Origin: Reclinomonas americana ATCC 50394
Lineage: Eukaryota
Reading direction: 5' to 3'
NCBI GenBank assembly: GCA_048213135.1
Contig: PS015054.1
Span: 443,812 to 485,987 of the forward strand
Length of the DNA stretch: 42,176 nucleotides
The notes under the pieces are model-generated. The model saw only the letters and a program-made list of their open reading frames with translations, did not search any database and had not been told where the DNA came from. This document shows positions 574 to 40,500 of this stretch, in pieces; position 1 is the stretch's first letter, and each line of letters begins with the position of its first letter. Both the position numbers and the translations under genes were made by a program.

Positions 574-3422
574 TCACAAGCAGTCAAAGTAAGGTGCAGG
601 TCGGCATGTGGTTCCCGGCGTGCACGTCACTTGCACCGCCCAGCCGCCGTATGTGCACACCGACAAGTTGTTGTCGACGCAGTCCCACGCGCCGCGGTTG
701 ACATTGGGATCGCAGACTGGTTGCCCTGAGCCAGAGCGAGTGACTGCAAGATGGATGGATACATGAGACAACTGCCAGCCGAATTCGAAGAAAGACATGC
801 AGGCTGCGTGCTTATAGTTACCTCCCGCAATCGTAAACAGCTTCTCCGTTTGGAGACCAACTGCATTCGTCGAACGAATGCGTACAGTGAGAGTGGTACG
901 ACTCTCGCCGGCGTTCGCAATGCGCAAACTGTTGCCACTGATGTTGAATGCATCGCCGTTCGTCGATGCGTCGCTGACAATCGTGTAGGTGAACGACGAC
1001 GTGACGGAGGCAGTGGTCGACAGTTGGCCGACCACTGTGTTTGCAGAGGCCGTCGGAGCGGAGAAACTCGTTGCCGACAGCGAAATATTTGTGGGTCCAC
1101 CTGCACGTCATTGGTCAGATATCTCTCTCCCGCCTCTCCGCAGCATCGCTCCAAGAGACACAAACACACCTTGTGCGGTTGAACAAGGGTCGAAGCTGAG
1201 CGCCACCATCTTCCACTGCAGTTGCAAGTAAAGTTGATTTTGCAGCGTGTATGCGCACTGCAGCAAGGTGGTGCCGTTGCACTGCAGAGTGCACGACGTG
1301 GAGCAGCTGTCTCCCGGATTGGGGGCGGACGGTGTGGGGGTCGGTGTGGGCGTAGGAGTCGGCGTCGGTGTGGAGTTCACTGTGCCGATTGCGAAGACAA
1401 CATGAGCTCCATCATCATCCAAGCAGAGTGATGAACACAGCTCACCTCCAGCAATAGTAAACGTCTTCTCAAAGTACTTGCCACCGTTGGCGGCGGCGTC
1501 AGTGCTGCGCACGCGCACCGACAACGACGCCGACGACAGACCGGCCGTGGCGATTTGCAATGTATTGCCGCTCGCGCCGGCAATCTCAAACACATCGCCG
1601 TTCGTGCCACTCGCCGCCACAATGGTGTACGTGAAGGGACCGACGGTATCGGAGGTGGTAGACAGAGAGCCGATCACTTGGTGCGCGGTCGACGGCATCG
1701 AATACTGCCCGTTGCCGGAGAGCATCAGGTCGCTGGGACCGGCGGGTGGGTTGGGAGTCGCGCTGCCGGTGAGGCGATCAGCGACGCCAGCCAGCAGGGC
1801 GACACCATTTGACACTGCGGAGGAGAGGGTGAGCGAGCGGGTGGCAAGCACGGATCTCATTGGCTCTCCAACGACGCAACACTCCCAAATCATTATGCCT
1901 CCGTAGCCATTGGCCTTGACGTAGTCGGCCTTGAGACCCAACGACTGGTCGTCGTCGTACGAGATGAAGATTTGTGCCGACGCACTGTACAAGTATGGCA
2001 CCTGTGCGGCGCTGTCCCAGTACCGCTGGTAGCCATTGATGCCGGCGTTGCTGGTGCCGAGGAACCGGTTCACCACATCATAGTAGAACACGGAGCCACT
2101 GGCGCCGAGTGTGCCAGTGCCCGCATACGAGGCCGGCGAGAACAGGCCATTCTGCGTGGGTCAAACAGACTCAGCGCACGTACAAGCAGAGTGCGACAAG
2201 CAGCGCGCGCGACATACCCGCGTGCCTGCAGAGACGCCGGCGTAGATGTGGCCGTAGAACGCCACACCCGCAGCCAAGCGACCGGCTGGTGCGCCACCGC
2301 TGACGTACGCCTGCAGCGAGGCCACCACGTTGAACTTGCTCTTGGCCGGCTCACTGATTGGCGACGACGGGTCCGCATACAGCGGGGCGTTGTGTCCAGT
2401 GCGCGACAGATCCCAGGTGCCGAAAAAGTCGTAGGCTGTGTTGTGTGTTGGGAATATATCAATGAGCAACTCGAGGGATAAGCAGGAAGATAAGAGAGGG
2501 AGGAGGGAGGTACGAAACCCATCACGTTGACCCAGTCAATGTACTGCAGCATGTTGGCCAGCTGCAGGTTGACGACAGCCGACGGAGCCGCCGGACCGGC
2601 AATGGTGATGAGGCCGTTGGTGAGCCCACGCGCTTGCATCTCCTGCCGCAGCGCTTGCACCAGCAGCACGTAGTTCGCCCCGTCGGACGGCAGGTGCGGA
2701 ATGTTGTTGCCACCCTGCGCAAGCATGAAATGAGCACAGCAAGCAGGAAGACGCGTTTGCTTGGCGGTTCACGTACTTCCACCGGGTACTCCCAGTCCAA
2801 GTCCACGCCATCAAAGGAGTAGTTGACCATAAAGTCCACCGCCGACTGCGAGAGGAGCAAGGCCAGTGAGACAAGGAGGAAAAAACAAGAAACGATCGAG
2901 ACTGTACTGCTCCAACCTTGGCAAACTTGGTGCGGTTGGTGGCCGAGGCGGCGACCGCAGAAAAGTTCGTGGACCACGTCCACCCACCAATGCTAATCGC
3001 CGTGCGCACATTCGGGCAGCGCTGCTTGAGGGCCTTCAGCGCCAGCAGGTTGCCGACACTGCCATCGCGCATTGGCAAGCCCGTGTCGGCCCACGAGTCG
3101 CCCACCAACACCGTTCCGCTGCTGTCCAGGTTGGCAAAGGCAAAGTTGATCACGTCCAAACGAGCGCACATGGCCGCAGTGATGTCGGCAATCTGATAGT
3201 TGCGCTCGTACACGGACCATGACGCCACATACGAAATCACTTTGGTCGTGCAATCACGAAGTCTCTGCGTTGTGTTGTGTGAGTTGTGCACAATGAACAC
3301 AAGTGCGTGTGCATGCACGCAACTACACCGCTTGCACATGCAGCATCCGCGTGACGCGCCTGCACTGCAACCAGCACCACCACGAGGAGAGAAAGAAGCA
3401 AGGAAAATCTCGCACGACACAT
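574..3422 (-). CDS. Secreted GH18 chitinase: signal peptide, GH18, cadherin-like, PT linker, 5-Cys module, cadherin-like, CBM19-like 6-Cys module (about 10 exons)
   Basis: Spliced translation gives hydrophobic leader MCRARFSLLLSLLVVVLVAVQA, then YVASWSVYERNY, NFAFA, SIGGWTWS, intact catalytic FDGVDLDWEYP, NVMAYDFFGTW, FISYDD and GGIMIWELS. The tail ends CDPNVNRGAWDCVDNNLSVCTYGGWAVQVTCTPGTTC...DCL*. Confidence 0.93.
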
Positions 3423-3747: not shown

Positions 3748-6700
3748 ATGCATGCAAAGTCATCTGCTGTGTGGTTCCTGCTGTGTGCGGTGCTGCTGGC
3801 GTGTGTGCCACTGGTCACCGGTCACGCACTTCTGCTTTCTCCTCGTTGCGTTTGTGTGCTGTTGTGATCAATGGGTGATGATAATCTCTTGACACTTTGT
3901 GTGTCCACAGTTGCACGGTCCGGGTGCCCGAGCTGCAACAACTACTGCCCGCACTGTTTGAATGCCGGTGGCCCAGGGTTCCGTCGTTCTTGACTTGTAT
4001 GCTCATGTGTGCGCTGCGCGATTGCTGACTTCCTTTCTGTCACCAGACAAGTGTCGGCATTCACTCCTGGCAACCATGCGTGGCCGGCGGTGGAGACGGC
4101 GACGACTGCGGTGCGCCGTGGTCTGTGCGGTGGCAATCCGGATGGCACCGGCTTGCAGTTTCTGACACCGGGGCCGCTGGCGGCCTCGTATGCCGCTGGA
4201 CAGGTCATTAACATGACTGTGCGTGTGACGGCGCATCACAAGTTGAGTGCGTTGCGGTCAGTGATGACTACGTTGGCGCCCTCCGAGAACTCACGCTTCC
4301 CCCATTGCTTTGGTGTCGATCCGCAGAGGTCACATGGAGGTGAGATATCAGCGGCCGCTGAGCAGTCACTTTAGTGTTTCTCGATCACTCACTCATGTGT
4401 GCAGGTCCGCCTGTGCGAGAACGCCCAAGCGTTGACTCAAGATTGCTTGAACGCCCACGTGCTTCAGCGTGTGGACACCACGTATTCACCGATTGATGCC
4501 GCGTATCCCGGTCGCTGGTACTTGCCACCGAATGGCATTGGCGACTACCCGATGCAGTATCGCTTGCCGGCCGGTGTCACGTGCAACAACTGCGTGCTGC
4601 AGGTAACGAGCCTCCACTGCGTCGTGGGGATCGCTGCCGTTGTCTCATTTGTGTTGACAGTGGTGGTACGTCACTGGCAACTCCTGCTCTGCTCCCGGGT
4701 ACGGCACCTATGCCTTCCCCAGTTCATCGTGGTGGAGTCCTGGAGTCGGCACGTGTGGTGTCAATGCGCCCTACCCCGAAGAGTTGCGCCATGTCGTCAG
4801 AAAATAACAGAGCACTGATGCCACCATCGCTGCTGACACCTCCCCCAGGTTTTGGAACTGCGCCGACATATCCATCACCGCTGATGGCTCGTCGCCGACA
4901 CCAACTCCGACGCCCACGCCCACGCCGACCCCGACGCCAACGCCTACGCCTGCGGCGCCAAACGTCGGCGACGTGTGCCCCGACAGTTGCGACATGACTT
5001 GCAACGGCTCATCGCTGCTGCAGTGCGAGTATGTGTCCACTGGTGCGTCGGCTCTCGGGCGCAAGTGGGCCCTGTTGGCCTCCAACTGGCCGGCGTGTTC
5101 ATTCGGCAACACACCAGGTTTGCTGCGCTTGCTTTTCCCCTCGATGCCCTGTATTCGTGTACGATATCCTGACTGTGATGACTGTGGCCCCAGCGGGTCC
5201 CACGGACATTTCACTGAGCGCATCGTCGTACCAGTCACCGTCGGTGGCCAACCAGACTGTCGGAACCCTCGCAGCCACATCGGACACCACTGGTCCGTTC
5301 ACCTTCTCGATTGTGAGCGACACGGCAACGAATGGGACGCAGTTTGCGATTGCCAACGGCAACGTGCTGCAAATCACGACGGCCGGACTGACGTCCGCGC
5401 TGTCGGTACGCGTGCGAGTGACCGACGCGGCGGCAAACGGTGGCAAGTCGTTTGACAAGCTTTTCTCAATCTCGGCTGGTGAGTGAGTGGGTGGTTGGGT
5501 GCAGTGTGATGATGATCAGTGCCTGAATATTGTGTGTCGTACAGTTGCACCACCAGCGACAGGCCCCACCAACATCACACTGAGCGCCTCGTCTTACCAG
5601 TCGCCGTCGGTGGCCAACCAGACTGTGGGAACCCTCACAACCACATCGGACACCACCGGTCCGTTCACCTTCTCGATCGTGAGCGACACGGCAACGAATG
5701 GGACGCAGTTTGCGATTGCCAATGGCAACATGCTGCAAATCAAGACGGCCGGACTGACATCCGCACTGTCGGTGCGCGTGCGAGTAACCGACGCGGCGGT
5801 AAATGGTGGCAAGTCGTTTGAGAAGGTGTTCTCGATCTCGGCTGGTGAGTGAGTGGGTGGTTGGGTGCAGTGTGGTGATGAGCAGTGGCTGAATAGTGTG
5901 TGCCGCACAGTTGCACCACCGCCGACAGGTCCGACCAACATCACACTGAGTGCTTCGTCGTATCAGTCGCCGTCGGTGGCCAACCAGACCGTGGGAACCC
6001 TCACGGCCACATCGGACACCACCGGTCCATTCACCTTCTCGATCGTGAGCGACACAGCAACGAATGGGACGCAGTTTGCGATTGCCAATGGCAACGTGCT
6101 GCAAATCAAGACGGCAGGACTGACATCTGCACTGTCGGTGCGCGTGCGTGTTACGGACGCAGCGGCAAATGGTGGCAAGTCGTTTGAGAAGGTGTTCTCA
6201 ATCTCGGCTGGTGAGTGAGTGGGTGGTTGGGTGGTTGCAGTGTGGTGACGATGCATGGCTCAATTCTGTACGCTGCTGCAGTCGCACCACCACCGACACC
6301 AAAAGGTCCGACGAACATCACACTGAGCGCCTCGTCGTATCAGTCGCCGTCGGTGGCCAACCAGACTGTGGGAACCCTCACGGTCACATCGGACACCACC
6401 GGTCCGTTCACCTTCTCGATCGTGAGCGACACGGCAACGAATGGGACGCAGTTTGCGATTGCCAATGGCAACGTGCTGCAAATCAAGACGGCAGGACTGA
6501 CATCCGCACTGTCGGTGCGCGTGCGCGTTACGGACGCGGCGGTAAATGGTGGCAAGTCGTTTGACAAGGTGTTCTCGATCACGGCTGGTGAGTGGGTGTT
6601 GCAACGTTGTGAGTATGAGAGTGTGTGTGGATGCTTACGGATCGGAACAGTCTCTTCCCCGACGTGCAACCCGTCGGTGAACCGCGGAGCCTGGGCTTGC

Positions 6701-6811
6701 ATCGGCAACAATCTTTCTACGTGCGACTGGACCGGATGGGTAGTCATCCAGAAGTGCACGGCCACCCAGGTGTGCCAGGCATCGCCGGCCACGGGCTACT
6801 ATTGCAAGTGA
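3748..6811 (+). CDS. Secreted AA15 lytic polysaccharide monooxygenase: signal peptide, AA15, PT linker, 5-Cys module, 4 cadherin-like repeats, CBM19-like 6-Cys module
   Basis: A 25-aa signal peptide ending VTG is followed directly by His (codon 3823-3825). Spliced product reads HALLLSPLAR, CPHCLNAGGP, GLCG, TAHHKGHMEVRLC, QYRLPAGVTCNNCVLQWWYVTGNSC and PEEFWNCADISI, all typical AA15 motifs. Confidence 0.9.
5194..6587 (+). repeat. Four near-identical tandem exon+intron units encoding cadherin-like domains
   Basis: Exons 5194-5478, 5545-5844, 5911-6210 and 6282-6587. Donors at 5479, 5845, 6211 and 6588 give spacings of 366, 366 and 377 bp. The first three introns start gtgagtgagtgggtggttgggtg, and all introns are phase 1. 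Confidence 0.97.
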
Positions 6812-6988: not shown

Positions 6989-9900
6989 ATGACTGAGCGA
7001 TGGGAACAGCGACGACTCGAGCTGTTGCGTCACACACACCCTCTCTCTCTCTCTCTCTCACATATACACACGCATGCTGACAATCTGCTTTGCGTGCGTC
7101 AGCGATCACCGATTGGACGCACTGCGGCGACGAACAGGCGGGTTGGTCGACAGCGGCGATGTGGGTGTCAGCGGCAGTCGGCTTGCGGTGCGTCGCGCTG
7201 AGCGAGCGCGGCTGGAGCTGAACGAACTGAACAAGGAGAATGCGGAGGCGGCCGCACGCAATCAGCGATTGCTGAGCGTGTTTGGAGATCTGGTCAAGCA
7301 CTTGTCGCAGATGCAGGCGCCGGCCACAGAGGCCGCGCAGCAGCTTCGTGCGGAGAAGGTGCGTTGCAGGACACTGCTGGTGTGGGGAGAGAGAGATAAG
7401 TGCTGAATGCGATGGGAGCAGGAAAAGTACTATTCTCATGTGATGGAACAACTGCCGGAGTGGCGTCGGCGACGTGATGCTGTGCGCAGTCGCGATGTGC
7501 AACGCATGGAGCAGGAGATTGTGCGTATGGAGGAGGAGCGGGCACGATTGCAGCGGGAGTTTGAGAATGAGCAGCTGGCACATGGAGTGTATTTGCGCAA
7601 GAGCATCGAACATCAGCAGACCAAGGAGCGACTGATGATGGAGGCGGAGCGGATGAAGGCGGAGCGAGAGCAGCGGGAACGCGAGGGTGAGATAATCTAG
7701 AGTGAGGCGGCCTCGGTTTGAGAGATCCTCATTGTGTGTCGACAGAGGCCGAACTGCAGCTGATTGTGCAAGAGGCTGCGCGATTGGAGAAGGAACGCTT
7801 CCGGCAGCAGTCGCAGACGGCAGTAGCCGAGGTCGCTCGTCGACAGTACTTGGACGTCAAGGGTAACGTGCTGCACTCGAACGCGTCGCATCAGCATCGA
7901 AGCTGACGCAAGTGTCTCGTGTCTTTTTTCTTTTCAGCTCAACTGCTCGAGCAAGCTGCCACCGGTTCCATCGACTTTTCTTCGACAGCAACCTCACAGC
8001 AGTCACTGCCGCGCACGGAACTGGTGCGGGAACCACTGACTACGCTCTACAGTTCCGGCTCTAGTGCGAATGCGGCGGCAGCCGGCGCCAGTTCCACGCT
8101 TACGCCGTTGCGGCTGTCGTCCAACCTCCTGCAACTGCGCGCAGCACCTGTGCCGCTCTCAGCTTCTACGCTCACCGCAATGTCGCTGGAGGCCGATACT
8201 GTGGAGCACGTTGTGAATTCAATGACAAAAGACCAGTTGCGTGCAAAGCGCTTCACTTGCAGCATTCCCCATCGTGCCTCACCGCGATCCGCCAGAATTC
8301 TTGCCGTGTTTATCGCTCTGGTGGCTGAGCTGGAGATGATTGACGCGCACGTGATGGTGAGCGTGTCTCGCGCTTGTCGGAAAGAGCTCCACTTGCCTGA
8401 CTTACAATCGCTTTGTGATTGATTTCAGTGTCCATACGCGTCCATGGATGCGACCATGTCGTTTGCACCCACCGGTGTCGAGAGTGCATCGCGTGTTGCA
8501 CTGCTGAGGCATGTACTGAGTGGAGCCAGTGCGGCACAGCTGCCTGTCGGCGAGCGTGCGCAATCGGTGCTGGATCTGGTGCATTTTTATCCGCAAGGTA
8601 CTGCCTGAACTCATGCTTCTTCTCCCAGTCGATAATGACACCAGCTGTCCACAGGTCTCGCTTCGCTCTCGTTTATTCAGGATTGCCTTATTACCACCAC
8701 TCGCTACACGCTCGACATGATCGATAAGCACTTTTTCGGCAGCACCCGAGGTTGGCACTTCATCCATGCCCTTTCGCTCTCTCTCTCGTCTCACAAGTGC
8801 GACACGCAGAAATATGGATACGCATGGTGCGTCACTTGCAGGTGGTCGTCACGCGGTATCCGCAAGAAAAGTACACGGTGCTGCAAGCGTTTGCATCGGC
8901 CCTGGTTCCACCCGGCGAGACCGTACATGCCTTTTCCATGTCGCGCAAGGTCTGCTGATCGCCCGTCCTGTGGCTGTCGTCGCAGTCAATTCTCACTGTG
9001 TGTGTGTGTGTGTGCGCGTGGGATCACAGATATTGCAGTTCCTGGAAGCGCTGGTTCGCCAGTCTCGTATCTCCGAGACGTACGCGCTGACGCGATCGAC
9101 TGAGCGGCTAATGGCGGCGGAGAGTGACGCGCTGCACCCGGTCACCGCTGTCACACCGACGGTGGCTGCTGCCTCAACACCGGTGGGTGTCGCCAATCCC
9201 GCTACTGCGGCGGCTTCGCATGCACAGAAGCCACCATTGGGCGCGACAGCCCCGCCTTCCAAGCTGCTGCCTCTGCATCTGATTGCACAGTCGACCGCCA
9301 CTGCAGTCTCGCAGCCGTCGCCGCCGGCCACCACCGGTGTTCCGAGCATGAGCATTTCGAGTCCGCCCACCGATCTCGACAACGGCGCCAATGAACGAGT
9401 AGCACGTGAGCAGGCCGCTTTGGCGGAGCGGCAACGCCTGGTGGCGCGCCAGGCAGAAGCCTTGCTGCAGATGCAACGCGAGCTCCAGGAGCAGGAGGAG
9501 CGAGCAAAGGCCGTACAGGAGGAGGAAGCTGCAAGGCGGCGGCAGGAGGCCGAAGCAGCAGCCGCAGCAGCCAAACAGCGACAGTTGGAAATGGAAAGAG
9601 CGGTGGCCGAGGCGGCGGCGATGGAAGTCAGAAGGCGGCAGCAGCAGCAGCAGCAGGAGCAGCAAGAGGCCGAACAGAAGGCTGCACAAGAGCGTCAGCG
9701 CAAGCTGGAGCAGGAGCAAGCAGAACAGCGCCGACTGGAGCAGGAACGTGCAGCGGCGGCTGCAGCTGCTGCATCTCAGAAAGTGGCACCTGTTGTTGTC
9801 GCTGCGGGAAGAACGGAACGAACTGTGCCAGTGGCATCGGTTGCCTCCCCGCCACGTGCCGGAAGCGCTGTGGCCATTGACGACATTCCGGCTGGCGTTA

Positions 9901-12004: not shown

Positions 12005-15000
12005 TTACAAGCGAGCCGAGTCGGCTGGAGGGAAATAGATCATGGGAGAGAACGTGACATGCTCGGTGTCGTCGTCCATCGGCGGCGCAGTGGGTGCCAG
12101 CTGACGAGGATACAGGCGCGGACTAATGAGTTGCGTGGGACTGGGAGAGCGTGTGCGCGACTTGCTCGGCGAGGTGGACTCTGGTCGTGCACCGGCAACG
12201 GCTGGCACAGCCAAATGCGACCGCGGTGCAAAGGGAGGCGACGACGCTGCAGACGACAGCGACGATAGGGAAGGCGGCGGCCGTGTCGGGGATGCCGTGG
12301 TTCCGTTCGCATTTTGCTTGGCAGCATCGATTACGGTCGGCGCGCTCTCGCCGCTTTGCGACTGCACGAAACGAATGAGTGATACTGGCAAACATCCACT
12401 GCCATTGCACTACGTTGCATACCTGCGTGGCCGACGACGATTTCCCAGCCGGAGCACCTGGCATGTGCGGCGACTCGGACCCTCGAGAGCTACCGGTGCC
12501 TCGGGCAGCCAAGACCGCCGCAGCGGCCAGGCCCGGCAGAACGACCGGTGGCTTGCGTTCTTCGGGGGCGGTCGACGGACGCTTCTTGGGCGACAAGCCA
12601 GCCGTGACACCGGGACTTGCGTTCACTGCAAAGGGACGATAAGAGTGAGCAAGTGGCCAGTGCGTGCAAGATGTCGTGTAGCTACTGACAACGCACTTCG
12701 ATACTGCAGCAACAGGCCGATGCTCTGCACCGGTGACGCCGAGGCCGATCCGTGCGAATACTGCAGCGAATCGGCGTCGTCATCGTCACCGTCCTGCGTG
12801 GCCACCGACACATTGTCGCCGGACGATGTCGTAGTGGTGCCGGCTGACAGAGAACCGCGAGGCACCACCGGCACCGGGGCGGGCGACTGGGAATGAGCGG
12901 CAGGCTTGCCACCGCTGCCACCGACCCTTTCGGGGTGGCGCACTCGCGGTTGCGCGCTTAGTGGCCGATTGGCCGCAAACAGCAACGATGGCACGTGCAC
13001 CTCGCCACCTGGACGAGCACCACCTGACGACACATCATTCAGTGAGATAGTCTCGCAGTCGCACGCAATTGACACATCACATCACACAGACGCACCTGGC
13101 GAGCGAGTGGGCGGGGCAGTGGTTGGGCGGCGTCGCGAGGATCCGGAGCCGTTGCCAGCGTCTGGCACGGTGGTGATTTCTTCGCGTCCCTCCACCGACA
13201 CGGTGGTGGGAGACGAGCCTCCGTGACTTCCGGCGTCGTCGTGCACGTTGCTTGACGTGTCGATCGACTGTCCGCGTGAGCCGCTGCCGGCGGGCGGTGG
13301 CAGTGCACGCAATCGAGAATACTGTCGGACTCACACGTGTCAGGCACGGGAGAGGGAGCGAGGGAGAGGAAGTGGCATATTGCAAGCGGACGCAACAGAA
13401 ATGTCGGGCACCGCAGTGCCGCCGGCGACGGAGCCAATGAGCAAGCCGTGAAGTCGCTCCATGTCAAGCTCGCGTCGCGGCGTGCGCGGAGTGCGCGGTG
13501 TCTCCAGTGGCGTGGAGACGGCGGAAACCTCCGAGTCACCACCGTGGTCGGCCGCCCCAGTGGCACCCGACCCAGCCACACCCAGCCGATCCCACGTCGA
13601 CGACGCAGCCACCACCGGCAGTCCGTCTATGAGCGACGAGCGTCCGGCCACAGCGGCAATAACAGCCTCGTTGGCGGGACCCGCGGTGGCGCCACTCAGA
13701 ATAGCAGCGGCAGTGAGGCCTCCAGCAGCACCCGAGTTGATACCGCGACTCGTGGAGAGCAGAACACGGGAGAGACCACGTGCGTTTCCTTCCTCCATCA
13801 GACTCGACGGCGCCATTTCGGCCAAGTCGCCGGCGATCCGCGACACGAGATGCACGCGACGCACAAACTCGGCTGCAACTCGTGTGAGCACAATGGCCAG
13901 CGGAACACACAACACAGACACACGTCTATCAAGTCTGGCACGCAACTGGCGACAGCATCGTCAGCCTCGACCGGTGTCACCATGCAGGCGGGCGGATCTG
14001 CGAGCCACGTGAGAGACATGCTACACGATGCATGTTCCAATGGAGGGGGACACAAACACGTACCGCGCGTTGTTGCGACACAGCGGCGATAGTTTTGCAG
14101 AGAGCGCATGCGCACATTGGCCAGTGGGGCCAGCCGGTGACGATGGCGGTACTCCCAATACGCATCGGAAATCACCCGCACAGCATGCTTGTGGCGCGTG
14201 TGCACCTCCACGGTGTGCGTCAGCAGCACATCGAGTTCGCCCAGTTGAGCGTCCAGTCGCTTGTGCAACATGACACCTTCGCGAACCATGCGTTCCACAA
14301 ACATGATTTGGCGGACGTGCTGCTGGATCACTGCGGCGGCTCGATGGCGGCGGCCAAGATGGCTGCGGTACTGCCGCTGAATCGCACGTGCCGCAGTAGA
14401 ACGGCGCAGCTCGCCCAGCTGTTGTGTGTTGTAGACAGTGGTGAGTTGCCGACGCGAGTGATGAGTGCACACAAGCCAAGAGCAGAGAGACGCACCCGAG
14501 AATCGCGTGCACGGTGTTGTCGATCGAGGTGGTGACGGAAGCTGCGCTGGATGCTGGTGGCAGCCTCGTTACGCATGGCGTGGTGCCCTGTTCGCACACA
14601 GGTGGGTAGCCTGTCGGAGAGAAGACAATACACAAGAAGCGCGGCAAACGCACCACGCCAAGTCGTCTGGATGACACGCGCGGCGGCATGCTGCACACGT
14701 CGGTCGCCGAGTGTCCGCAGGAAGCGTCGAATGTTGCGCTGCAGCAGCGAGGCAGCAGCCCTCGATCGCACAAAGCGCTTCCTTTCCACGTAGGCTGTCG
14801 CATTTGCTCGATGAGCACAACACGCACCACTGTCGCAAACACAAACAAGCTGCTGCAAACCTCGTGCTTGATGCTGAATCACACGCGCTGCGGCCGTCCA
14901 CTCATCGAACAACTCGTCGCTCGGGTACCGCGCGCATTCTCGTGGCAGCGAGAAACGCGGGTGGTGTGCCGACTACAGTACCGGTGATGAGTCCAACTGC

Positions 15001-23383: not shown

Positions 23384-26300
23384 ATGCAGCAAGAGATGGA
23401 TCCCATGTTGGCTGCAGCGGCCTTTCTGTTTGCGGTGAAGGTGTGGTGTTGGTTCTCAACACGCGCGCGCGTGTGTGTGCATTATTCGTGCGAGTGTGTG
23501 CGCGCTCTGTCTGTGTGTGTGTGTGTGTGAGAGAGTGTGTGTGTGTGTGTGTCTGTGTGTGTGTGAGAGAGAGAGGAGAGTTGTGCGAGAAGAGAGCGCT
23601 TCTTCTTTCTTCTTTGGTGTTGGTGTTGGTGTTGTTGTGTGCGCGATCGCACGCACGCGTTTTGTGTGGTGTGCATGAGTTCTCACACTCTGTCTGTTTG
23701 TGCGTGTGTGTAGATAAAAGATGGGCTGTTTGCTGGCAACGCGGCCTCTGCGCACGGTGAGTCTCCGCCTCTCTCATTTTCTCGCACTTAACGACGATTG
23801 GTTCACTGACTGTCTTGTTGTGTGTGTGTGCGCGCTCAGATGAAGAGGTTTCGTGTGTATGTGCTTGTTCTCTGTACCTTGCTTGCTCTCACTCACTCAC
23901 TCACTCTCCATTGGCGATGATGATGACAATGAGCAGTTCCTGTCATCGAACAAGGTTCATTTGATTGCCTGCCTGCGTCTCTGTGTGTACCCTCTCTCTC
24001 ACACACACATACGCACTGTCACACATGCACAGATCACCCACATTATCAACTGTGCGGCTTTGGAAGGTTCCTCCTCGCTCTTGCTCTTGCTCTTACTCTT
24101 TCTGTTTGTCACTCATTCGCTGTCCATCAGTGGGCAACGGGTATCCGGTTCCCGGGCTGCAGTACTTGACGTTCCCGTGGCGCGATCTGGAGAGCACCAC
24201 CATTATCGATCCACAAGGGCGCAACATGAAGGAGATTTGCGATTTTGCCGCCAAGGCCGAGAGGCTCGAGGAGGGCGTTCTTGTGCACAGCTTGTTGGGT
24301 CGATGTTTCGTCTCCACATGCCTCTCTCGCTGTGTTCCCCTTCTCTCCCTCTCTGACATTTCGTCTCCGGCAGCCCGCTGCTCTGTGGTCATTATCGCGT
24401 TCATGATGAAGAAGTTTGGCTGGTCGCTGGAGGACGCGGTGGAGTTTGTGCGTGTCAAGAACGTGGAGATGGACCTGAAGCCCGGTCACATTGCGCAACT
24501 CAAGATGTACTCCAAGAAGCTGGAGGAGGAGCGTGGTCCGGCCGTGGCCAACATTCTCGATCCCGACCTTGATGCCGCCGAACTGGTCAATTTTGACCCG
24601 GAGCAACTCGTGCTGCGAAACACGGTGAGTGTGTGTGTGGATCCATCAAATTGTGGTGTCGTCCTCACACCGATAACCCATCCTCGCAGTACTTTAATTC
24701 GCTGACGAAACCCGAGGATCTCGAGGCCACCATCAACGAACTGCAGTCCAACGGCCCGCCAGTGTTTCAGAGAAGACCAGTGAGTGCGCCCGACGGAGGA
24801 GGGCGGCGGCGAGTCACCTTTTCCACACCACTCACATTTGGTGTGTAATACGTTGCCTGTTGTGATCGTTGTGATCGTCGTTGTCGTCGCTCACTCTCGC
24901 GCCAGTGTTGGGGCCGAGGAAAGGCGCACCGATTCGCAAACCTGGAGTCGGCGGTCCATCGGCGGCCGGTGGTCCCGGTGGCGCCACAGGCGGTGTGTTT
25001 GCTGGCTCACTATCAGTCACGGGGTTGGGTGGCGGTCCGCCATTGGGACCGGCGGCGGGTGGACCGAGCAGCTCCCTCTTCGCGTCGTCGGCCATTACGG
25101 GAGCGGCAGGGGGTGGTCTGCGTGCGGCGCCGAAACCTGTTGCTGGCAAAGTCGGACGTGCGGCTGTCGGTGTGCGAGATCCGACTCCACCGAAAGGCGG
25201 GTTGGACTCGTCCATGTCGTCGTCGGCGGCGGCCGCGGCATCGGGCAACGTGACACAGTCACAAGATCCACGTTACGCCTCACAAGCTGGTTCGTTTCAC
25301 CGTCTCCCTCTCTGCGCCTGCAAGTCTCTCACATCTGCCCTGCAAAAAAACAGCTCGTGCCGATGGCTCCTCTCTCGGCGCAGCCTCTGGATCGTCGGCC
25401 ATGTACGCGGGATCGGCGGCAGCAGGTGGCGGTGCTCCTGGAATGCCGGGCAGCTCTTCATCTTCAACAACGACAGCAGCAGCAGCGGCAGCGGCGGCAA
25501 ATCGCAAGCCACCAGCACTGCGCGGACCGAGATTGTCGATTGGAGAGCCTCTGGACGCGGGAAGTGGCCGTTTGTCAATGCCATCGCAGTCACCGTCACC
25601 CGCCGGATCCTCCGTTTCACTACCGCAGTCGAACATGTCGTCGTCGCTCTCCGGAAGCTCCATGTCGCAGCTGGTGAATTCGTCGTCGGCCAGTGGTAAT
25701 GGCAGCAGCAGCAACGGACAAGGACCGAGCGGCGTAGGTGGTGGGCCTGATCGTCTTTTCGAGATTTCGCGTAAGAAGCCGGGAACTGCGGCGCCAATCT
25801 CAGCTGGACCTGCTGCAGCGACGGCCGCGGCGACGGCAGCCGACGCCCAGAGGCGGCCCCCGAGACCAGCCAGTGCGCCAACATACTCCTCACAGCCGGG
25901 CCTGGTGCAACTGACCAGTCCTTCACCACCGCCGGCCTCGGTGTTGGGTCTCCCTGGAGGCGCAGGTGGTCCTGGTGGTCAACTGCCGCTGGGCGCGTTG
26001 TCTACGGCTGGCGGCATGCCAGCTCGTGGTACCATCAACAGCAAGAACAGGAGGTTTGGCGGTGTTTCGCTGGCGAACCCTCGGAAGAGTATTTCGGCAA
26101 CTGACCCTCTGACATGGCAGATCATCCAGCGATCCGCGAGCCCTGCAGCAGCAGGCGGAACGCGACGAGATTCTGGCGCGCATTCTCGACGAGTCACACC
26201 GATCGCTGACGCTGGAGGAAATGACAGCCGTGGCAACGGCCGCACAGCAGCAACAACAACAGCAGCTGGGCGGCAGCTTGCGTCGACCACAGCGTCCACC

Positions 26301-27245
26301 ATCGGCCAACACTGGCCCGTTGTCCATTGTCAGCGCCTCGGGTTCGCTGGCCAACGGGGCCGGTATGTCGTCGGTGGGTGGCGTCGGTGGTGTGGCCACT
26401 GTGCCGCGACGGTCGACGCCCGTGCGACGCTCGTCATTGCAGCAGGCGCCGCAACAGCAACAACAACAGCAACAGCAGCAACAGCAGCAGCAATTTATGC
26501 AGCACAGTGCCATGTCGCTTGCGCTCTCATCGCAGCAACAACAACAACAACAACAGCAGCAGCAGTCGCAGCATCAGTACTCAATGTCGCAGGGAGGCAT
26601 GTTTGACACGCTGAATGGCATTGGGTACGGCGGTGGTGGCCCCTCTTCCTACGGAGATCAAGGAGCAGGCTATGGCGCCAGCAGCATGCGATCGAGCTCG
26701 CTTGATTTCGGTTCGGGTTTGACGGGGTCGGCACGCACGGCAGGCAGCGGCACTGGCTCGCGCTCCGGTCGGGGTAGCACACCGACGTTGCGTCTTCTCG
26801 TGACATTTGTCTGTACTTTCGTTTGCTTACATGCTTGCTGCAGTCGGCGAGAGTCGCCAGTGGGTATTCCGCAAGCAGGCAGCACGCAGCAACTGTCGTC
26901 GCGGATAGCACCGGCCGGTGGCAATGGCAACATGCGGCAACTCGCGCGCTTGGCCGAATCACCCTACGCCACTCCGCTGATGCGACTGCCGACACCACCA
27001 CGGAACATGCCTACGGGTGGTGCGTTTTTTGCACGCTGTGCATACTCGCGTATGTTACTCACACTGTTGCAACATGTTGCGCAGCACTAGCATATCCGTC
27101 GAGCACAAGTTCAGGTTCGCTGGCCACCGACGAAGCCGACGAAGGCGAGAAGAAGAAGAAAAAGAAGAAGACGAAGAAGGGCACATCGGCGGTGCAGAGT
27201 CGCCTGCTGAAGCCAACCGCGTCCTCCATGGCGCGTAATCGATAG
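23384..27245 (+). CDS. Dual-specificity phosphatase-like protein, probable pseudophosphatase, with long G/P/S/Q-rich tail
   Basis: Spliced: AVK-IKDGLFAGNAASAHDEEFLSSNKITHIINCAALEV...YLTFPW...GVLVHSLLGRSRCSVVIIAFMMKKFGWSLEDAVEFVR...QLVLRNTYFNS. These are DSP fold motifs, with Ser at the catalytic Cys position. Confidence 0.85.
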
Positions 27246-27577: not shown

Positions 27578-28520
27578 TCATGCGCCCTTGGACTTGAGCA
27601 GCTTGGCCATGTAGAACAACTGGTACACGGCAGCCGACACCACAATGACGCCCTGCGTGATGCTCAACCACAACACACGCGAGTTGATGTCCTCGGACAG
27701 GTCGCGCATCTCCTCCTCGCGCTCCCGATAGTGCAACTGCTCGTCGCGCACGTCCTTGACACGATCCTCCAGACGACGAATGGCCAACGCCAGTGCTACA
27801 AAGAACACACACACTCCTCGTCAGCAAAGACGAGAGCCAAGAAGCAGGGAGGGAGGGACGCAACAATCGAGATGTTCGCGCTTGGCCACCTCTGAGTAGT
27901 TCTCCGCCATCTCGCCCAGACGAATGTCAAAGTTGAAGCGGATCTTCTTCTTGTTGGGGAACCACGACGAGCTGTTGGTGTTGAAGCAGATGGTGTGCTC
28001 GCCACTCGACTGCATGACACATGTCAATCTCAGCGCAAAGACATGCAGTGCGCGATGATGTGAGCAGACCTCTGACTTGAACGCAATGCGCGCCCTGTGA
28101 TCCGTGACCTGATCGAGGAACATCACTCCAGTCGGGCCCGTGGCCGTCACGTGAATGCCCAGCGGCTTGCCACTGGTGTTGGCACTGAGAGAGAACGCAT
28201 GAGAATCGCAGCATGCAAAAATGACATGACGAGTGATAGAGCAGGCATTTTCTCACTCACCCCGCCAGCTCCTGCGCAGGGATCTCGTACTTGGCCAGCA
28301 GCAGTGTGTTGTTGGGCAAGTCTGCGACACGCAAAAACGACATGTCACTCACAAGTCTCTCTCTGCGTCGTATCTTACAGCACATACACACACACACACC
28401 CTCAGAGAAGCACTTGGTCTCGCCCTCGCCAATGAACGTGTACACAGCGTGCACTTGCACAGACGCCACCAGCACCACCACCACCACCACCATCATCATC
28501 ACAGCTGTCACTCGCGACAT
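27578..28520 (-). CDS. p24/emp24/TMED family GOLD-domain cargo receptor
   Basis: Signal peptide, GETKCFSEDLP, SGEHTICFNTNSS, coiled coil EQLHYREREEEMRDLSEDINSRVLWLSI, TM helix and short tail KLLKSKGA*. Confidence 0.93.
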
Positions 28521-28671: not shown

Positions 28672-30134
28672 ATGGACCTCGAAGCTATTAGGCAACGCCT
28701 GTGTCGCCTATCCTCCGCGCGCCTAGTGGCACCTGACATGCGCGAATCGGTAGATGCGATTGTTATTGTGCTGGAGCCACGAGCTGTCAACACACTGCTC
28801 AAGTTATGATAACACGAGGAGGGGGGCCACAGGGACATAAACTCATCGTTTCTTGTGTAGAGAGGTGCAAAGTGCGTTGCACTTGTCGCGGTTCGCGTTG
28901 GATCATCTCAAGCGCGTGCGGAAGATCGATCCGCAGTGCATGCACTTGCTGGTGTGTCCGAGTCGAGTGTGGGAGGAGGATGCAGAGGTGCGAGCGTTTC
29001 GCGAACGGCATGCAAATGGAGTGCTGTTGCGTAGTGAGGTGCTGCGTGTGGCGGTGCCGCGGCATCGGCCGCTGTCGCAGGAGGATTTCGAGGTGTTGAA
29101 TCGGTGGTGGCCGCTGGCCAACAACATCAAGCAAGTCGGGTGCGTCTCTCTGTCTCTGTCGCTCTTGTGTGGCCTTCCGTGCTGATACGGGCGCTGTCAG
29201 GCTGCGTGCCGATGATATCTGCTTGTCGGATGAGGAGCTGGTGAGCTTGCGGCGACACTTGCGGAGGGCGGTCGACTTGGCGGTCGGCGGTGGCTCGCAC
29301 ATTCCTGTCGCGTGCGTGCTGGTGGACCCGGCGAGTGGCGAAGTGGTGGCGGAGGCCGTTGACGGCAGTGGGGACTGGCAGCAGTCGCCGTACCTCACGG
29401 CGCACGCGGACGGACCGCGCTCTGCTGGTACTGTGTGCCATCGTGTCCTCCTCTCGCCACTGTGGAGGGGGACTGAAATCGTGTGTGCGTAGGGTGCCAC
29501 CCGCTGCGGCACGCGGTGATGGAGTGCATTCGACTGGCGGCGGAGCGCTTTCCAGCCAGTCTGCTGGTCGTGCCCGACGACATGCACGAGCATGCGCCGG
29601 AGGTGACCGTGAACGCCACCACCTGTGATGATGGTGTGGTGGATGAAGAGGTGCGCGATGTAGGGGATGAGATCAGTGACCACGTCAGGCTGGTGGCTCA
29701 TGTGCATGCGATACGCAGTCACCAGCGCGCAAGCGACGAAAAGTGACCGCGGCGGCAGACGACGGCGCCAGTGGATCGGCTGCGGATGAGTTTGTGGGCG
29801 AGCCGCACCACCAGTACTACTGCTCCGGATTCGACATGTACTGCACCGCCGAGCCGTGTACCATGTTGCGTTCTCTCTCTCTCTCTGTGCATGCACCACT
29901 GCCGTGCACTCACCGATCACCAAGCGCAGGTGCAGCATGGCGCTTACGCACTCGCGAGTGCGACGCGTCTTTTACGCACGCCCCACACCCAGTTTCGGCG
30001 GCTTGGGGACCAGTGGCCTCACGAATCTGTCGCTGGTGCCGTCGCTGAATCATCATTTTGACGTTTACTGTGGCGGCCTGACCGACGCCGAGTTGGAGGA
30101 GCTCACACGCGCCAGCGAAAGAGGTGTCAGATGA
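28672..30134 (+). CDS. ADAT3: tRNA-specific adenosine deaminase subunit ADAT3/Tad3
   Basis: LDHLKRVRK, WWP, HPLRHAVMECI (Val replacing the catalytic Glu, as is usual for Tad3), [33 protein letters not shown] and SLNHHFDVY. Confidence 0.92.
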
Positions 30135-30176: not shown

Positions 30177-30743
30177 TCAGGCAAAGGCTCCCGCCACTGC
30201 TCGCAGTGCCAGTGCAACACATCTTGCACCGCCGTCCTCGTGCGTCAACACTCGATCGCCAATGTAGCTGCAGGGCCAGAAAGACATGTGACATGTGTTT
30301 GGTTATGAGTACCACGATGAAGGGACGTACCTCGCGCGCCCCGCACGCGGCTTCATGTTGGCCGTACTCAATGCGCCCTTGTCGGCACCCTCAGCCATGG
30401 CCAGCACCACATCCTTGCCGGTGCACTCGTCCGACGCCGCCGCCACCATGGCAGCACGAGCAGCCGGGACTAGCACATCGATAGAATTGAGATAACGGCG
30501 TATCGTGCGCAGCAAAGACAGTGGACGCAACTGAGTGCATCGAGCATCGTGCGGTATCCCTCACGTGCGTGACCGAGCTCGGAGATGGCTCGCGTGCCCG
30601 CCTCAAAGGCAATGAGCCACGCCAGTGGATCTTCCATGCCCTCATCGTGATCCTCCAACTCGTTGGCCATGCGCAGCAGGAACACGGGCAAGAGAGCGCC
30701 AGAGGTGCCACCAAGCGAGGTTTCCAACACGTGCGCCAGTCCA
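30177..30743 (-). CDS. Dihydroxyacetone kinase/triokinase C-terminal DAK2 (DhaL) domain, last three exons; 5' part not visible
   Basis: LGGTSGALL, ISELGHAREGYRTMLDALIPA, TANMKPRAGRASYIGDRVLTHEDGGA, with stop at 30177-30179. Confidence 0.88.
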
Positions 30744-31163: not shown

Positions 31164-31203
<40 letters not shown>

Positions 31204-37128: not shown

Positions 37129-37398
37129 TTGAGCGCTTTGTGCGTGTCTGAGCAGTTCGCGCAAGAACATAATGTCTTTGCAAGAGATTTTGGTGAGTGT
37201 GTGTGTTTCTCCGCACTTTTTGTAACACACAGTCTTCTTGTGTCTCTCTCTCTCTCTCTGTGTATGTGTGCGTGTCTTTGTCTTTGTTGCTCGTCACATG
37301 AGGGAGTGTGTGCAGTGGAGAATGTGGCGAAAGTGTGTTCCGTCAGAAAGACAGACTCTCGCACATACTTTCTCACACTCACTCACACACATACACTC

Positions 37399-37440
<42 letters not shown>

Positions 37441-37489
37441 NNNNNNNNNNNNNNNNNNNNTCTCTCTCGTCTCGTCTCTCTACTCTCTC

Positions 37490-37545
<56 letters not shown>

Positions 37546-40500
37546 TCCTCACTCCCTTACCTTCCCCTCACCTTCCCCTCTCCTTCCCCTCACAGACCAT
37601 GGCCGTGCACGTCACCTCTCTCGGACAAGCCTTCTCGGAGATGATGTCCTCGCAAGCCGACGCCACCGAGCGCCTCACCTGCGACGTGTCTTCGCTGGCC
37701 AATGTTGCGCACTCGCGCTGGTGCACACGACGACACACACTGTTTAACCATCGCCCTGCGCAGCGCATCCGCTTGAGTCGCGAGGCCGCTGGTTTGGGAG
37801 AGCTCGACAAGCTGCGCGCGCGTCGTCGTGTGCCGCGTGGCGGCAAGCAGGTCAAACTGCCGCCGGATCGCATCCTGAGCTGCCCGAAGGTGTGCATTCG
37901 TTGACTCTCATGCAACTCTTGGCCTATCACTCTAATCCTGTATCTGTTCATTCTCCGCTGACGCCTATTCTTCTTCCACTCGCTCTTGCGTCTTGTCTGC
38001 GCCGTCTCCTCTCTCCTTTCCCATTTTCGTCACTTCGTTCTCTGAACTTCCCTCTTTCTTCTTCTACCACTCATACATCTTCCCTTTGCCGTGTCCTCTC
38101 TCCTTTTCTTGTGTTGCACTCCCCGCTCTGCACTATTCTTCCTCCCACTCCAGCATGTTTATTCGCCATCTCCTCTCTGCTATCCCCATTCCCATCATTC
38201 TGTTTCATTCCCTGCTCAATCTTCTTCCTCCACTTCTGCGTCTTTACTTCGTCGTCTCCTCGCCTTCCATTTCACGCCAGTTCTGTTGCATTCTGTGCTG
38301 CTGCTCATTCTTGTTGCACTTGCTTGTGCGCCTTTCCTTCTCGTCCATTCTTCTCCCACATGGCCTCCACCCGCCATCGTCTCTTTCCTCCCCTCCTTCT
38401 CACTCCTCCCCCTTTTCCCCCTCCCCCCTTCCCCCTTCCCCCTTCTCCCTCATCTTCTCCCTCATTTTCCCCCTTTCTGCAGCCCTGCGCCGTCCCTGAG
38501 TACGCCGACAAATCACCCTACGCCCTCAACATCCCCGACATGGAGCGCCTCGGCATCTCCCTTCGCTCGGCGGCCGACGAGGGTGCCGCAGCATTCGACC
38601 CGCTGGCCAACCGCTCGGCGGCCAGCGTTGCCGTGCCGTTCAAGCGCACCGAGAGGTTCCTTGTTTGTTGGAGAGTCCATCACCAACAAGAACTCTGACC
38701 GTCTCTTCTCCTCTCGTAGCGGTGGTGTCGCGCGTCCCGAAATCAGCGCTCCGCCGCCAATGCTCAACGCCGCACCACGTGCCAGTGTGCGCCCGGACGG
38801 TATGCTTCTGCAGTGTCGTGTTGTTTATGTCGTGCATCATCTCACCGTGCCCAACAGCTGGTGGACCGTCGCGTCCGATCGGCTCGCCGATGCCCCCATC
38901 GCCCTCGTCACAACGTTGCGTGTGTATTTTTTATCCTTTCAATCCACCCTTGCCTTTTCCTATGACGCTTACACTATCTGGCGACGATCAGTGGGTGCCA
39001 ACCAGCCTTCTGCTGGCACTCTCTCTACTCCGCCTCCCGCACCGCCGGCTGCTGCTGCTGGCCGTTCTCCGCCACCGCCGCCGCCGCGCCAAGATGGCGA
39101 CGCACAACGTTGTGTACCCTGCACGCCTACCTTCTGCTTTGTGTGTCGTGCTCACGCTTGTGTGTGTGCAGCCACGGTGCAACCAGTGGTGACTGGGCTC
39201 GCCAATCGCGCGCCGCCCCCACCGCCTCCACAGCAGCAGGGTCCCATCACCACCGGACCTCCACCGCCTCCACGCCAAAGCGGCACCGGTGCTCCGCCTG
39301 CGCCTCCATCCCGTACCGGAGGAGCGATTCCTAATGCCCCGCCACCGCCACCGCGTGATCGCAAGTCTCACGCGCCGGGCGCACCAGCCGCCATTCCGGT
39401 GCGCTCTTCGCGGTCATTTGTGCCATGCGCACGCCCCTCCTCATCCCTCTTCTTTTCTCTTTGCGCAGCCGCCTCCCGGTCAACCCACTGCCGGTGCTCC
39501 TCCTGCTGTGCCTCCACGTCCACCGGCGGCTACCCAGGCGCCCCCGCCTCCAGCTCCTCCAGCTGCTGCCAGCCCTCCTCCCGCGCCTCCTGTTCGCGCG
39601 AATCCTGCACCACCACCACCTCCTGCAGCGGGACCCCCGCCTCCCCCAGGTCCGCCACCGCCCCCGCCTCCTGGCCCTCCACCACCGCCAGGCCCACCGC
39701 CACCAGCACCGCGTGCTCCGGCCGCGCCAGCCGGCGGTCCGCCTGCTCGTTGCGTTGCCATTCGATCTATTTTGATTTTCTCCGCCCGTNNNNNNNNNNN
39801 NNNNNNNNNNNNNNNNNNNNNNNNNNNNNNNNNNNNNNNNNNNNNNNNNNNNNNNNNNNNNNNNNNNNNNNNNNNNNNNNNNNNNNNNNNNNNNNNNNNN
39901 NNNNNNNNNNNNNNNNNNNNNNNNNNNNNNNNNNNNNNNNNNNNNNNNNNNNNNNNNNNNNNNNNNNNNNNNNNNNNNNNNNNNNNNNNNNNNNNNNNNN
40001 NNNNNNNNNNNNNNNNNNNNNNNNNNNNNNNNNNNNNNNNNNNNNNNNNNNNNNNNNNNNNNNNNNNNNNNNNNNNNNNNNNNNNNNNNNNNNNNNNNNN
40101 NNNNNNNNNNNNNNNNNNNNNNNNNNNNNNNNNNNNNNNNNNNNNNNNNNNNNNNNNNNNNNNNNNNNNNNNNNNNNNNNNNNNNNNNNNNNNNNNNNNN
40201 NNNNNNNNNNNNNNNNNNNNNNNNNNNNNNNNNNNNNNNNNNNNNNNNNNNNNNNNNNNNNNNNNNNNNNNNNNNNNNNNNNNNNNNNNNNNNNNNNNNN
40301 NNNNNNNNNNNNNNNNNNNNNNNNNNNNNNNNNNNNNNNNNNNNNNNNNNNNNNNNNNNNNNNNNNNNNNNNNNNNNNNNNNNNNNNNNNNNNNNNNNNN
40401 NNNNNNNNNNNNNNNNNNNNNNNNNNNNNNNNNNNNNNNNNNNNNNNNNNNNNNNNNNNNNNNNNNNNNNNNNNNNNNNNNNNNNNNNNNNNNNNNNNNN

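Follow-up and report, generated by a model that had tools for sequence, protein, structure and literature searches.

A second, tight class of 5' splice sites, H/GTTGCGT, in a 42-kb window of Reclinomonas americana nuclear DNA

At human 5' splice sites, U1 may bind one base out of register, with U6 setting the cut (PMC4856993, citing Roca & Krainer 2009). According to the same source, the noncanonical registers that have been validated account, taken together, for 1.5% of 201,541 human sites, and the register with a bulge at +2/+3 has 68 predicted sites. In Entamoeba, GUUUGU(U) donors are found in 88-90% of introns and U1 has changed to ACAAAC; in Mastigamoeba, GUGCGC donors go with a U1 of ACGUAC; and in Thecamonas trahens and the Mamiellales C is preferred at +4 and U1 is standard (10.1101/2022.06.08.495308). 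Here we describe the introns of one stretch of Reclinomonas americana ATCC 50394 DNA, 42,176 bases of contig PS015054.1 (positions 443,812 to 485,987, forward strand), called the window below; all counts are from this window alone. Besides ordinary donors, the window holds introns that start with GT plus an extra T, typically as GTTGCGT, after exons that do not end in G (H/GTTGCGT, where the slash is the cut and H is any base except G). We are highly confident that these introns and this donor class are real. They would belong to a known phenomenon, that of noncanonical 5' splice-site registers, here in the form of a major class.

The window is eukaryotic nuclear DNA of 59% G+C with four runs of N, and its crowded genes are cut by numerous short introns with a median length of about 69 nucleotides (nt). 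Introns were predicted by a dynamic-programming exon chain that scores codon usage, intron composition, a 14-base acceptor matrix and length, and that asks of the donor only that it be GT, or GC with a penalty; we call this first round donor-blind. In round 2, an intronic donor score trained on round 1 was added, and the −1 base was left unscored. A working table of 80 introns was assembled from 29 hand-modelled introns and 51 introns of round 2, with 20 predictions excluded for a gene score below 50 or a length outside 45-140 nt, and with four near-identical introns in the repeat modules of an LPMO gene entered once. Round 2 is partly circular for motif frequency, and the frequency claim therefore rests on round 1 and the hand-modelled genes.

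The donor-blind set comprises 101 introns, of which 26 have GTT donors, 71 have GT followed by A, C or G, and four have GC. Among the GTT donors, G peaks at +6 (13/26) and T at +7 (14/26), while in the other GT donors the same two peaks fall at +5 (41/71) and +6 (39/71). The dinucleotide GT occupies +6/+7 in 10 of the 26 GTT donors, versus 70 of 951 GTT sites that were not predicted as donors (7.4%). Seven introns of the donor-blind set begin with GTTGCGT, which is the most frequent single donor sequence in the window. On both strands together this heptamer occurs 21 times; base composition predicts 5.3 occurrences and a 6-mer Markov model 14.6. Comparable counts are those of GGTGAGT (18) and GGTGCGT (17). 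Twelve of the 21 are supported intron starts, and several of the others lie antisense to genes or within an exon. The table divides as follows:

Ordinary GTV donors (V is A, C or G): n = 49; G at −1 in 35.
GTTnnG donors: n = 19, 12 of them exactly GTTGCGT; G at −1 in 2, T in 9, A in 6, C in 2.
Other GTT donors: n = 10; G at −1 in 9, A at −2 in 7.
GC donors: n = 2; G at −1 in 1.

The exon-end rule is strong. G stands at −1 in 2/19 GTTnnG donors versus 35/49 ordinary donors (Fisher p = 6 x 10^-6) and versus 9/10 other GTT donors (p = 5 x 10^-5), and in the 29 hand-modelled introns the comparison is 2/11 GTTnnG versus 14/15 ordinary. The motif is also tight: G at +6 defines the class, and with it go C at +5 in 18/19 and T at +7 in 17/19. 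The remaining GTT donors are of a second kind, AG/GTT..., with G at −1 (those at 2916, 5118 and 24067 are examples). At their other ends the GTTnnG and ordinary introns are alike. All 19 GTTnnG introns are GT-AG; the median length is 69 nt in both classes; the acceptor is CAG in 16/19 versus 44/49; and a branch-like YTVAY motif lies 6-45 nt from the 3' end in 17/19 versus 39/49, at a median distance of 18 versus 19 nt. Counted in the hand-modelled genes, phase 1 or 2 is taken by 10 of 11 GTTnnG introns and by 7 of 14 ordinary introns.

The ordinary donors have a character of their own. None of the 49 is GTAAGT, and a pyrimidine stands at +4 in 36; the leading sequences are GTGTGT (nine times), GTGAGT (six times) and GTGCGT (five times), with some of the GTGTGT donors lying within GT repeats and possibly misplaced.

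The original prediction, made from the letters of the window, listed about 20 introns with an extra T after GT, most of them (about 17) following an exon base other than G. Every one of the 20 coordinates carries GTT (GTTGCGT 11, GTTGCGC 3, GTTTCGT 3, and GTTGAGT, GTTCCGT and GTTGTGT once each), a direct reading gives 17 of 20 without G at −1, and the enrichment of G at +6 over +5 that would mark such a class among GTT donors is found within the window in the donor-blind set. As a list of introns, it stood in large part. Ten of its sites are fixed by homology (four in the LPMO gene, two in a GH18 gene, and one each in ADAT3, Dak2, p24 and phosphatase-like genes), and four are supported by gene models only; five are equivocal, and one, 23848, fits no frame. 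The list was also incomplete, as it left out GTTGCGT donors at 20193, 17098, 13946 and 13396, a GTTACGT donor at 15043, and the G-ending kind of GTT donor.

In the LPMO and GH18 genes, the cut sites were tested by scoring all in-frame GT/GC-AG pairs within ±60 nt against a homologue profile (LPMO n = 14, GH18 n = 39). The modelled genes include:

3422 down to 576, minus strand: GH18 chitinase (PF00704, E = 1.3 x 10^-17 for a single exon).
From 3748, plus strand: LPMO_10-type (AA15-like) oxidase, Pfam LPMO_10, with an open frame of 417 amino acids (aa).
Other modelled genes: a coiled-coil gene, a phosphatase-like gene, a p24/EMP24 gene, ADAT3, a proline-rich gene, and the Dak2 end of a dihydroxyacetone-kinase gene.

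The AA15 label of the LPMO gene was given by eye or comes from the original prediction; LPMO_10 is what Pfam backs. The GTT introns of the first two genes are:

1815..1880, minus strand: GH18 intron 6, donor t/GTTGCGT, phase 1; first of 16 variants by 1.9 bits.
2436..2518, minus strand: GH18 intron 4, donor g/GTTTCGT, phase 1; first of 10 variants by 18.7 bits and the sole GT-AG pair within ±12 nt.
2846..2916, minus strand: GH18 intron 2, donor aag/GTTGGAG, of the second GTT kind and absent from the earlier list; first of 22 by 7.4 bits.
3265..3323, minus strand: GH18 intron 1, after the signal-peptide exon, donor a/GTTGCGT; position not unique, with GT-AG solutions at 375.9, 375.8 and 375.6 bits.
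3845..3910, plus strand: LPMO intron 1, donor c/GTTGCGT; first of 15 by 5.2 bits, gapless to P0040 and P0041.
3978..4046, plus strand: LPMO intron 2, donor g/GTTCCGT; first of 15 by 2.6 bits, with a gapless alignment.
4242..4326, plus strand: LPMO intron 3, donor a/GTTGAGT, followed by a 13-nt micro-exon; first of 20 by 8.5 bits.
4783..4848, plus strand: LPMO intron 6, donor a/GTTGCGC; first of 14 by 6.6 bits.
5118..5193, plus strand: LPMO intron 7, donor cag/GTTTGCT, of the second GTT kind; required by the open 417-aa frame and chosen by the donor-blind predictor.

In the LPMO gene, each of six junctions, including the ordinary ones at 4340 and 4603, is top-scoring, by margins of 2.6-16.5 bits, and over all six the joined protein is gapless against two open reading frames (ORFs) from Choanoeca transcripts. 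Retention of intron 3 lowers the score from 313.4 bits to 95.4. In the GH18 gene, the intron at 1880 stays in frame if retained and then scores 3.1 bits lower; splicing it restores the 'Wels' of the profile.

The GTT introns of the other genes are:

7024..7102, plus strand: coiled-coil gene intron 1, donor t/GTTGCGT; chosen by the donor-blind predictor, and without splicing a stop comes at residue 70.
8236..8295, plus strand: candidate intron, donor a/GTTGCGT; chosen in neither predictor round, 3' end at the 68th percentile.
13322..13396, minus strand: IQ-repeat gene intron, donor t/GTTGCGT, newly found; donor-blind predictor, 3' end at the 88th percentile.
13873..13946, minus strand: IQ-repeat gene intron, donor a/GTTGCGT, newly found; donor-blind predictor, 3' end at the 93rd percentile.
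14973..15043, minus strand: IQ-repeat gene intron, donor a/GTTACGT, newly found; donor-blind predictor, 3' end at the 91st percentile.
17032..17098, minus strand: IQ-repeat gene intron, donor t/GTTGCGT, newly found; round 2 only, 3' end at the 92nd percentile.
19350..19410, minus strand: intron, donor t/GTTGCGC; donor-blind predictor, 3' end at the 85th percentile.
20120..20193, minus strand: intron, donor t/GTTGCGT, newly found; donor-blind predictor, 3' end at the 83rd percentile.
23848..23936, plus strand: proposed donor g/GTTTCGT, unsupported; five stops in the phosphatase frame with each of four junction combinations tried.
24067..24130, plus strand: phosphatase-like gene intron, donor aag/GTTCCTC, of the second GTT kind; donor-blind predictor, domain frame kept.
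24305..24373, plus strand: phosphatase-like gene intron in the P-loop, donor t/GTTTCGT; the next exon begins at DSPc profile position 86, 3' end at the 99th percentile.
26787..26843, plus strand: intron in a low-complexity tail, donor c/GTTGCGT, in frame if retained; donor-blind predictor, 3' end at the 94th percentile.
27796..27864, minus strand: p24/EMP24 gene intron 4, donor t/GTTGCGT; EMP24 profile position 114 ends the exon and residue 3 of the next exon is at 118.
29865..29929, plus strand: ADAT3 intron 4, inside the P-C-x-x-C zinc motif, donor t/GTTGCGT; placed on mouse ADAT3 chain 7nz7_B.
30470..30531, minus strand: Dak2-domain gene intron, donor a/GTTGCGT; Dak2 profile positions 37-103 in one exon, residue 7 of the next at 110; donor-blind predictor.
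37704..37763, plus strand: candidate intron, donor t/GTTGCGC; 3' end at the 74th percentile, no Pfam match spliced or retained.
38915..38991, plus strand: proline-rich gene intron, donor c/GTTGCGT; without splicing the 388-aa frame breaks at residue 251.
39109..39171, plus strand: candidate intron, donor c/GTTGTGT; 3' end at the 96th percentile.
39749, plus strand: candidate donor; runs into an N gap.

Because they can be retained in frame and without a stop, 8236, 37704 and 39109 remain candidate introns. The ADAT3 junction was placed through a search of the PDB, a homologue search having given no match: residue 257 of 7nz7_B corresponds to residue 47 of the exon and residue 260 to the first residue of the next, so that the two flank the junction exactly. 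In the p24 gene, the gap between EMP24 positions 114 and 118 equals exactly the three residues present, and the Dak2 profile runs over the 30531 junction continuously to within one position. At 24305, the P-loop directly before DSPc position 86 was read by eye, and the joined reading is H-S-x-x-G-x-S-R; a comparison of the upstream exon with the PDB gave no meaningful match.

A direct reading with both boundaries slid by one base gives a TGA in p24 and alters a conserved residue in each of three other genes: S of the phosphatase P-loop becomes C, I of the Dak2 motif becomes S, and L of the GH18 'WEL' becomes W. The cut is therefore at /GTT and not one base later. The donor-blind predictor missed five of the ten homology-fixed sites, and the donor term of round 2 brought back three of these five.

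Three of these genes have further features around their junctions. The LPMO micro-exon (4327-4339, plus strand, 13 nt) lies between the GTTGAGT intron and a GTGAGA intron and contributes some of the residues of the conserved H-H-K-G-H; homologues align without gaps when this exon is present in the model, and not otherwise. The loop of the phosphatase-like gene (24280-24400, plus strand) reads H-S-L-L-G-R-S-R, with Ser replacing the catalytic Cys of H-C-x-x-G-x-x-R, and the protein is therefore probably a STYX-like phosphatase without catalytic activity. Farther down the same gene (24780-24790, plus strand), overlapping donors are found in GTGAGTGCGC; judged by eye, the second (a/GTGCGC, 24784) alone keeps the downstream proline/glycine-rich frame, and the first, which was modelled initially, puts the downstream part in a frame with a non-coding look. 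In the p24 gene, the segment 28010-28069 (minus strand) starts with gag/GTCTGC, with C at +3, and is in frame and free of stops if retained; from the usual spacing of the GOLD domain we take it, by eye, to be an intron. At the unsupported 23848 site, a GTATGT lies 9 nt downstream.

How might such a donor be read? We favor, at about even weight, the interpretation that these are genuine introns of the major (U2-type) GT-AG kind with a second tight donor, H/GUUGCGU, that is recognized early in a register displaced by +1. H/GUUGCGU occupies the same seven-base frame as G/GUGCGU, that is G-K-U-G-C-G-U. With G as the second base the cut comes after the first G; with U there, the first two bases are themselves the GU, and the cut lies directly before them. 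The intron's own first G then takes the place normally held by the exon-final G, which frees the exon end from the requirement for G and accounts for the exon-end rule. U1 or a U1-like partner would bind the frame early in the +1-displaced register, and the cleavage site would be fixed later, at the GU, by U6, U5 and Prp8. We infer both the register and the RNA or protein that reads the donor; the window itself shows the introns with their cut sites, as well as the motif and the rule for exon ends.

Several results weigh against this interpretation. Duplexes with U1 were calculated with RNAduplex, whose nearest-neighbour energies are estimates for short helices, at the 19 class sites and with the standard, universal U1 5' end, which may not be that of the host. 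The mean U1 duplex energy is −1.05 kcal/mol for GTTnnG donors versus −5.83 kcal/mol for ordinary donors, and a continuous duplex in the +1 register is found in 2/19 (4242 and 13946), with 4242 the sole class member whose +1-register duplex is strong (−5.1 kcal/mol). Nine of the 19 make just two or three U1 pairs at offset +1. GTTnnG donors pair with standard U1 worse than random GT sites do (area under the curve, AUC, 0.293). A shifted register also predicts that −1 should favor A, and the counts are T 9, A 6, C 2 and G 2. Further, under a plain shift the bases behind GUU should show the same spectrum as +3/+4 of ordinary donors, but C precedes the G in 18/19 GTTnnG donors, and the equivalent C at +4 is found in 10/38 ordinary donors with G at +5 (p = 6 x 10^-7); because of this low share, moving the ordinary consensus by one base does not produce the GTTnnG class. 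Finally, 51 of the 80 introns in the table are our own predictions, in which the motif frequencies are partly circular by way of round 2, and the evidence is limited to one 42-kb window. The second kind of GTT donor behaves otherwise, pairing with U1 in the normal frame via the exon end at −3.6 to −7.7 kcal/mol in 9/10, and the GH18 donor at 2916 pairs in the canonical register at −5.4 kcal/mol. Of the shifted-register U1 reading in the original prediction, the large class, the non-G exon ends and the frame displaced by one have held; pairing with the standard U1 is not supported as stated, and C at +5 is left unexplained. A variant U1 or U6, also named there, may be involved. The poor energetics leave two options: something outside the energy model helps in reading the shifted frame, which we consider an evenly balanced proposition, or a second reader exists, which we hold to be less likely.

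A second, dedicated reader is the foremost alternative and a serious one, though the less favored: a second U1 small nuclear RNA (snRNA), or another RNA or protein, would be complementary to GUUGCGU (of the type ACG(U/C)AAC at U1 positions 3-9) and form a continuous helix, with ordinary U1 serving G/GURNGU. The tightness of the motif (12/19 exactly GTTGCGT, with C at +5 and T at +7 nearly invariant) suits such a reader, and so does an enumeration of hypothetical U1 cores, 1024 in all at positions 4-8, each of which was used to tell donors from 800 random GT sites. The standard core, CUUAC, ranks 4th of 1024 for ordinary donors (AUC 0.798) and 968th for GTTnnG donors. At U1 position 8 the top cores for GTTnnG all have A, and at position 5 they all have G (CGUAA, 0.960; CGCAA, 0.907), and the top core for ordinary donors is CGUAC (0.840), the core reported for Mastigamoeba. 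No single core is good for both classes, the best minimum AUC being 0.794. This enumeration amounts to a prediction rather than a finding, and it depends on nearest-neighbour energies of short helices at 19 sites. A variant U1 changed at positions 5/6 only was also considered and rejected, its apparent 'GC' gain being an effect of GC content relative to random GT sites. There is precedent for U1 altered to match atypical donors, in Entamoeba and Mastigamoeba; against this, a standard U1 goes together with C or U at +4 in Thecamonas, the Mamiellales and yeasts, and atypical donors often lack a matching U1 (10.1101/2022.06.08.495308). Two U1 codes within one major spliceosome are not described in the available parts of the compared literature. 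In its fullest form this alternative would have two donor codes side by side, ordinary U1 for G/GURNGU and a second U1 or other factor of the ACG(U/C)AAC type for H/GUUGCGU, the latter through an unbroken helix of 7 bp in a frame displaced by one base; that arrangement we think somewhat less likely still, and if it were true the exon ends would be split into a G-ending and a non-G-ending set.

A bulged-U register is improbable. Here U1 would keep its normal frame (G+1 with C8, U+2 with A7), one U at +2/+3 would be bulged, and GCGU would pair as +3 to +6. In human, the bulge at +2 or +3 is an experimentally established register with 68 predicted sites (PMC4856993), and it would give the correct cut site without later correction. 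The exon base at −1 would, however, still lie opposite C9 of U1, so that a preference for G is expected, and the observed split is 2/19 versus 35/49. Nor did RNAduplex with standard U1 give a single bulged U at +2/+3 in any of the 19 donors; the nearest case, 2518, has a larger internal loop.

Equally doubtful is the view that no special recognition is involved, U at +3 being tolerated, the GCGU tail coming from composition, CpG-rich introns or mis-set junctions, and the class being an artefact of sorting. Donors in the table are indeed generally loose (GTCTGC, GTAACG and GTTGGA are among them), ten GTT donors have no G at +6, the GTTCGT donors at 16683, 34815 and 25290 have U at +3 in the normal frame, and six of the 20 originally listed sites were not confirmed. 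This view does not account for the excess of GT at +6/+7 among donor-blind GTT donors over the 7.4% background, nor for the supported intron starts at 12 of the 21 GTTGCGT heptamers, and the split in G at −1 between GTTnnG and the other GTT donors is unexpected from composition.

U12-type introns have a tight 5' motif, with the donor consensus RTATCCTT and the branch site TCCTTAAC near the 3' end. Removal of the GTTGCGT introns by a minor (U12-like) or otherwise separate spliceosome, which the tightness of their 5' motif might bring to mind, is very improbable, in that GTTGCGT is unlike RTATCCTT and the branch-like motif, its distance, the acceptor and the length are as in the ordinary class. 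The 'divergent spliceosome' offered in the original prediction is likewise unlikely because the 3' ends of both classes are alike. Introner-like repeated introns were looked for by eye in 18 intron sequences, which have nothing in common beyond donor, branch and acceptor; the GTT introns are therefore not copies of a mobile intron.

The window has other features. The GH18 (576-3422, minus strand) and LPMO_10 (3748-6811, plus strand) genes stand head to head with 326 bp between them, and their tails have a common architecture, with a Thr-Pro linker, a Cys-rich piece, repeated beta-sandwich-like modules and a Cys-rich C-terminus; the two look like a co-regulated chitin-degrading pair. The LPMO gene carries four near-identical tandem modules of about 365 bp each (5194-6650, plus strand), all ending in a ctg/GTGAGTG intron start. 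It is most similar to ORFs in transcripts of two choanoflagellates, Choanoeca perplexa and C. flexa (64% identity across one exon), and the best protein match to GH18 has 50% identity; neither the proteins of the window themselves nor close relatives of them occur in the protein collection searched. From 11852 to 22909 on the minus strand runs a very long reading frame rich in IQ motifs, with about 30 predicted short introns and the IQ motif as its sole Pfam result; it may be more than one gene. A single exon of 723 aa (32291-34459, minus strand) fuses a ubiquitin-like domain with a protein kinase domain, and its nearest relative is metagenomic, at 35% identity. The ubiquitin-kinase and the IQ motif were the only results named by Pfam among the 10 longest ORFs, and Pfam yields no family for a gene labelled 'WAVE-like' by eye. 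CT-rich, low-complexity introns of about 490 nt (30745-31230, minus strand) and 593 nt (37890-38482, plus strand) adjoin N gaps, against a norm of about 69 nt.

A metagenome scan for related DNA gave six loci, none of them a convincing close relative or of use for intron comparison: four have 30-44% identity, and the remaining two have 71-81% identity across 16-17 residues only. A search of the whole window with Rfam gave no RNA family at gathering scores and 25 matches at E ≤ 1, none of them an snRNA. The majority of these matches fall on GA/CT repeats flanking the N run at 37441-37460, and the microRNA-like matches among those below gathering (37395-37552, both strands) were rejected as an artefact of GA/CT repeats opposed across a 20-N gap.

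The relation between U1 pairing and cut position is usually studied on a few rare human sites and on engineered minigenes. If about a quarter of the introns of a whole genome had such a displaced donor, nature would have supplied a large set of test cases, which would show whether shifts of register are broadly tolerated, whether U1 or U6 has been altered or duplicated, and how exon ends escape the requirement for G. In an organism of this kind, a gene finder whose training was on GTRAGT-type donors will get many gene models wrong. In the window, the displaced donor is accompanied by a clean rule, that the exon does not end in G, and by a motif that misfits standard U1.

How does this class compare with those described? 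By title or the start of the abstract, no literature was found on GTTGCGT as a splice donor, figures and supplements lying outside that search and a description in a genome paper being possible; and the available parts of the compared literature describe no two coexisting donor types with an exon-end rule. The GUGCGU-type ordinary donors of the window, 6 of 49, resemble those of Thecamonas and the Mamiellales, for which the available part of the source describes no GUU class or exon-end dichotomy. Mastigamoeba offers precedent for a change in the U1 5' end, including G at position 5 facing C at +4. With the human +2/+3 bulge register the class shares the GUU start and an unpaired U, and there a preference for G at −1 is predicted that is lost here. 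With the human +1 shifted register it shares GU with an extra U, a consensus G at +6 and U at +7, a cut made at GU despite the displaced frame, and G+1 of the intron replacing G−1 of the exon; in human, however, that register is rare and its tail is the U1-complementary AAGU, whereas the class described here is found in about a quarter of introns, includes the commonest donor and has the tail GCGU. Like Entamoeba, the window has U at +3, a preference at +7 and a lineage-specific donor that misfits standard U1. The near-universal atypical donor of Entamoeba is not matched here, as GTTnnG donors are 19 of 80 and ordinary donors are the majority. In sum, where Entamoeba has one atypical donor in an intron-poor genome, this intron-rich window has two coexisting donor types that differ both in frame and in the rule for the exon end.

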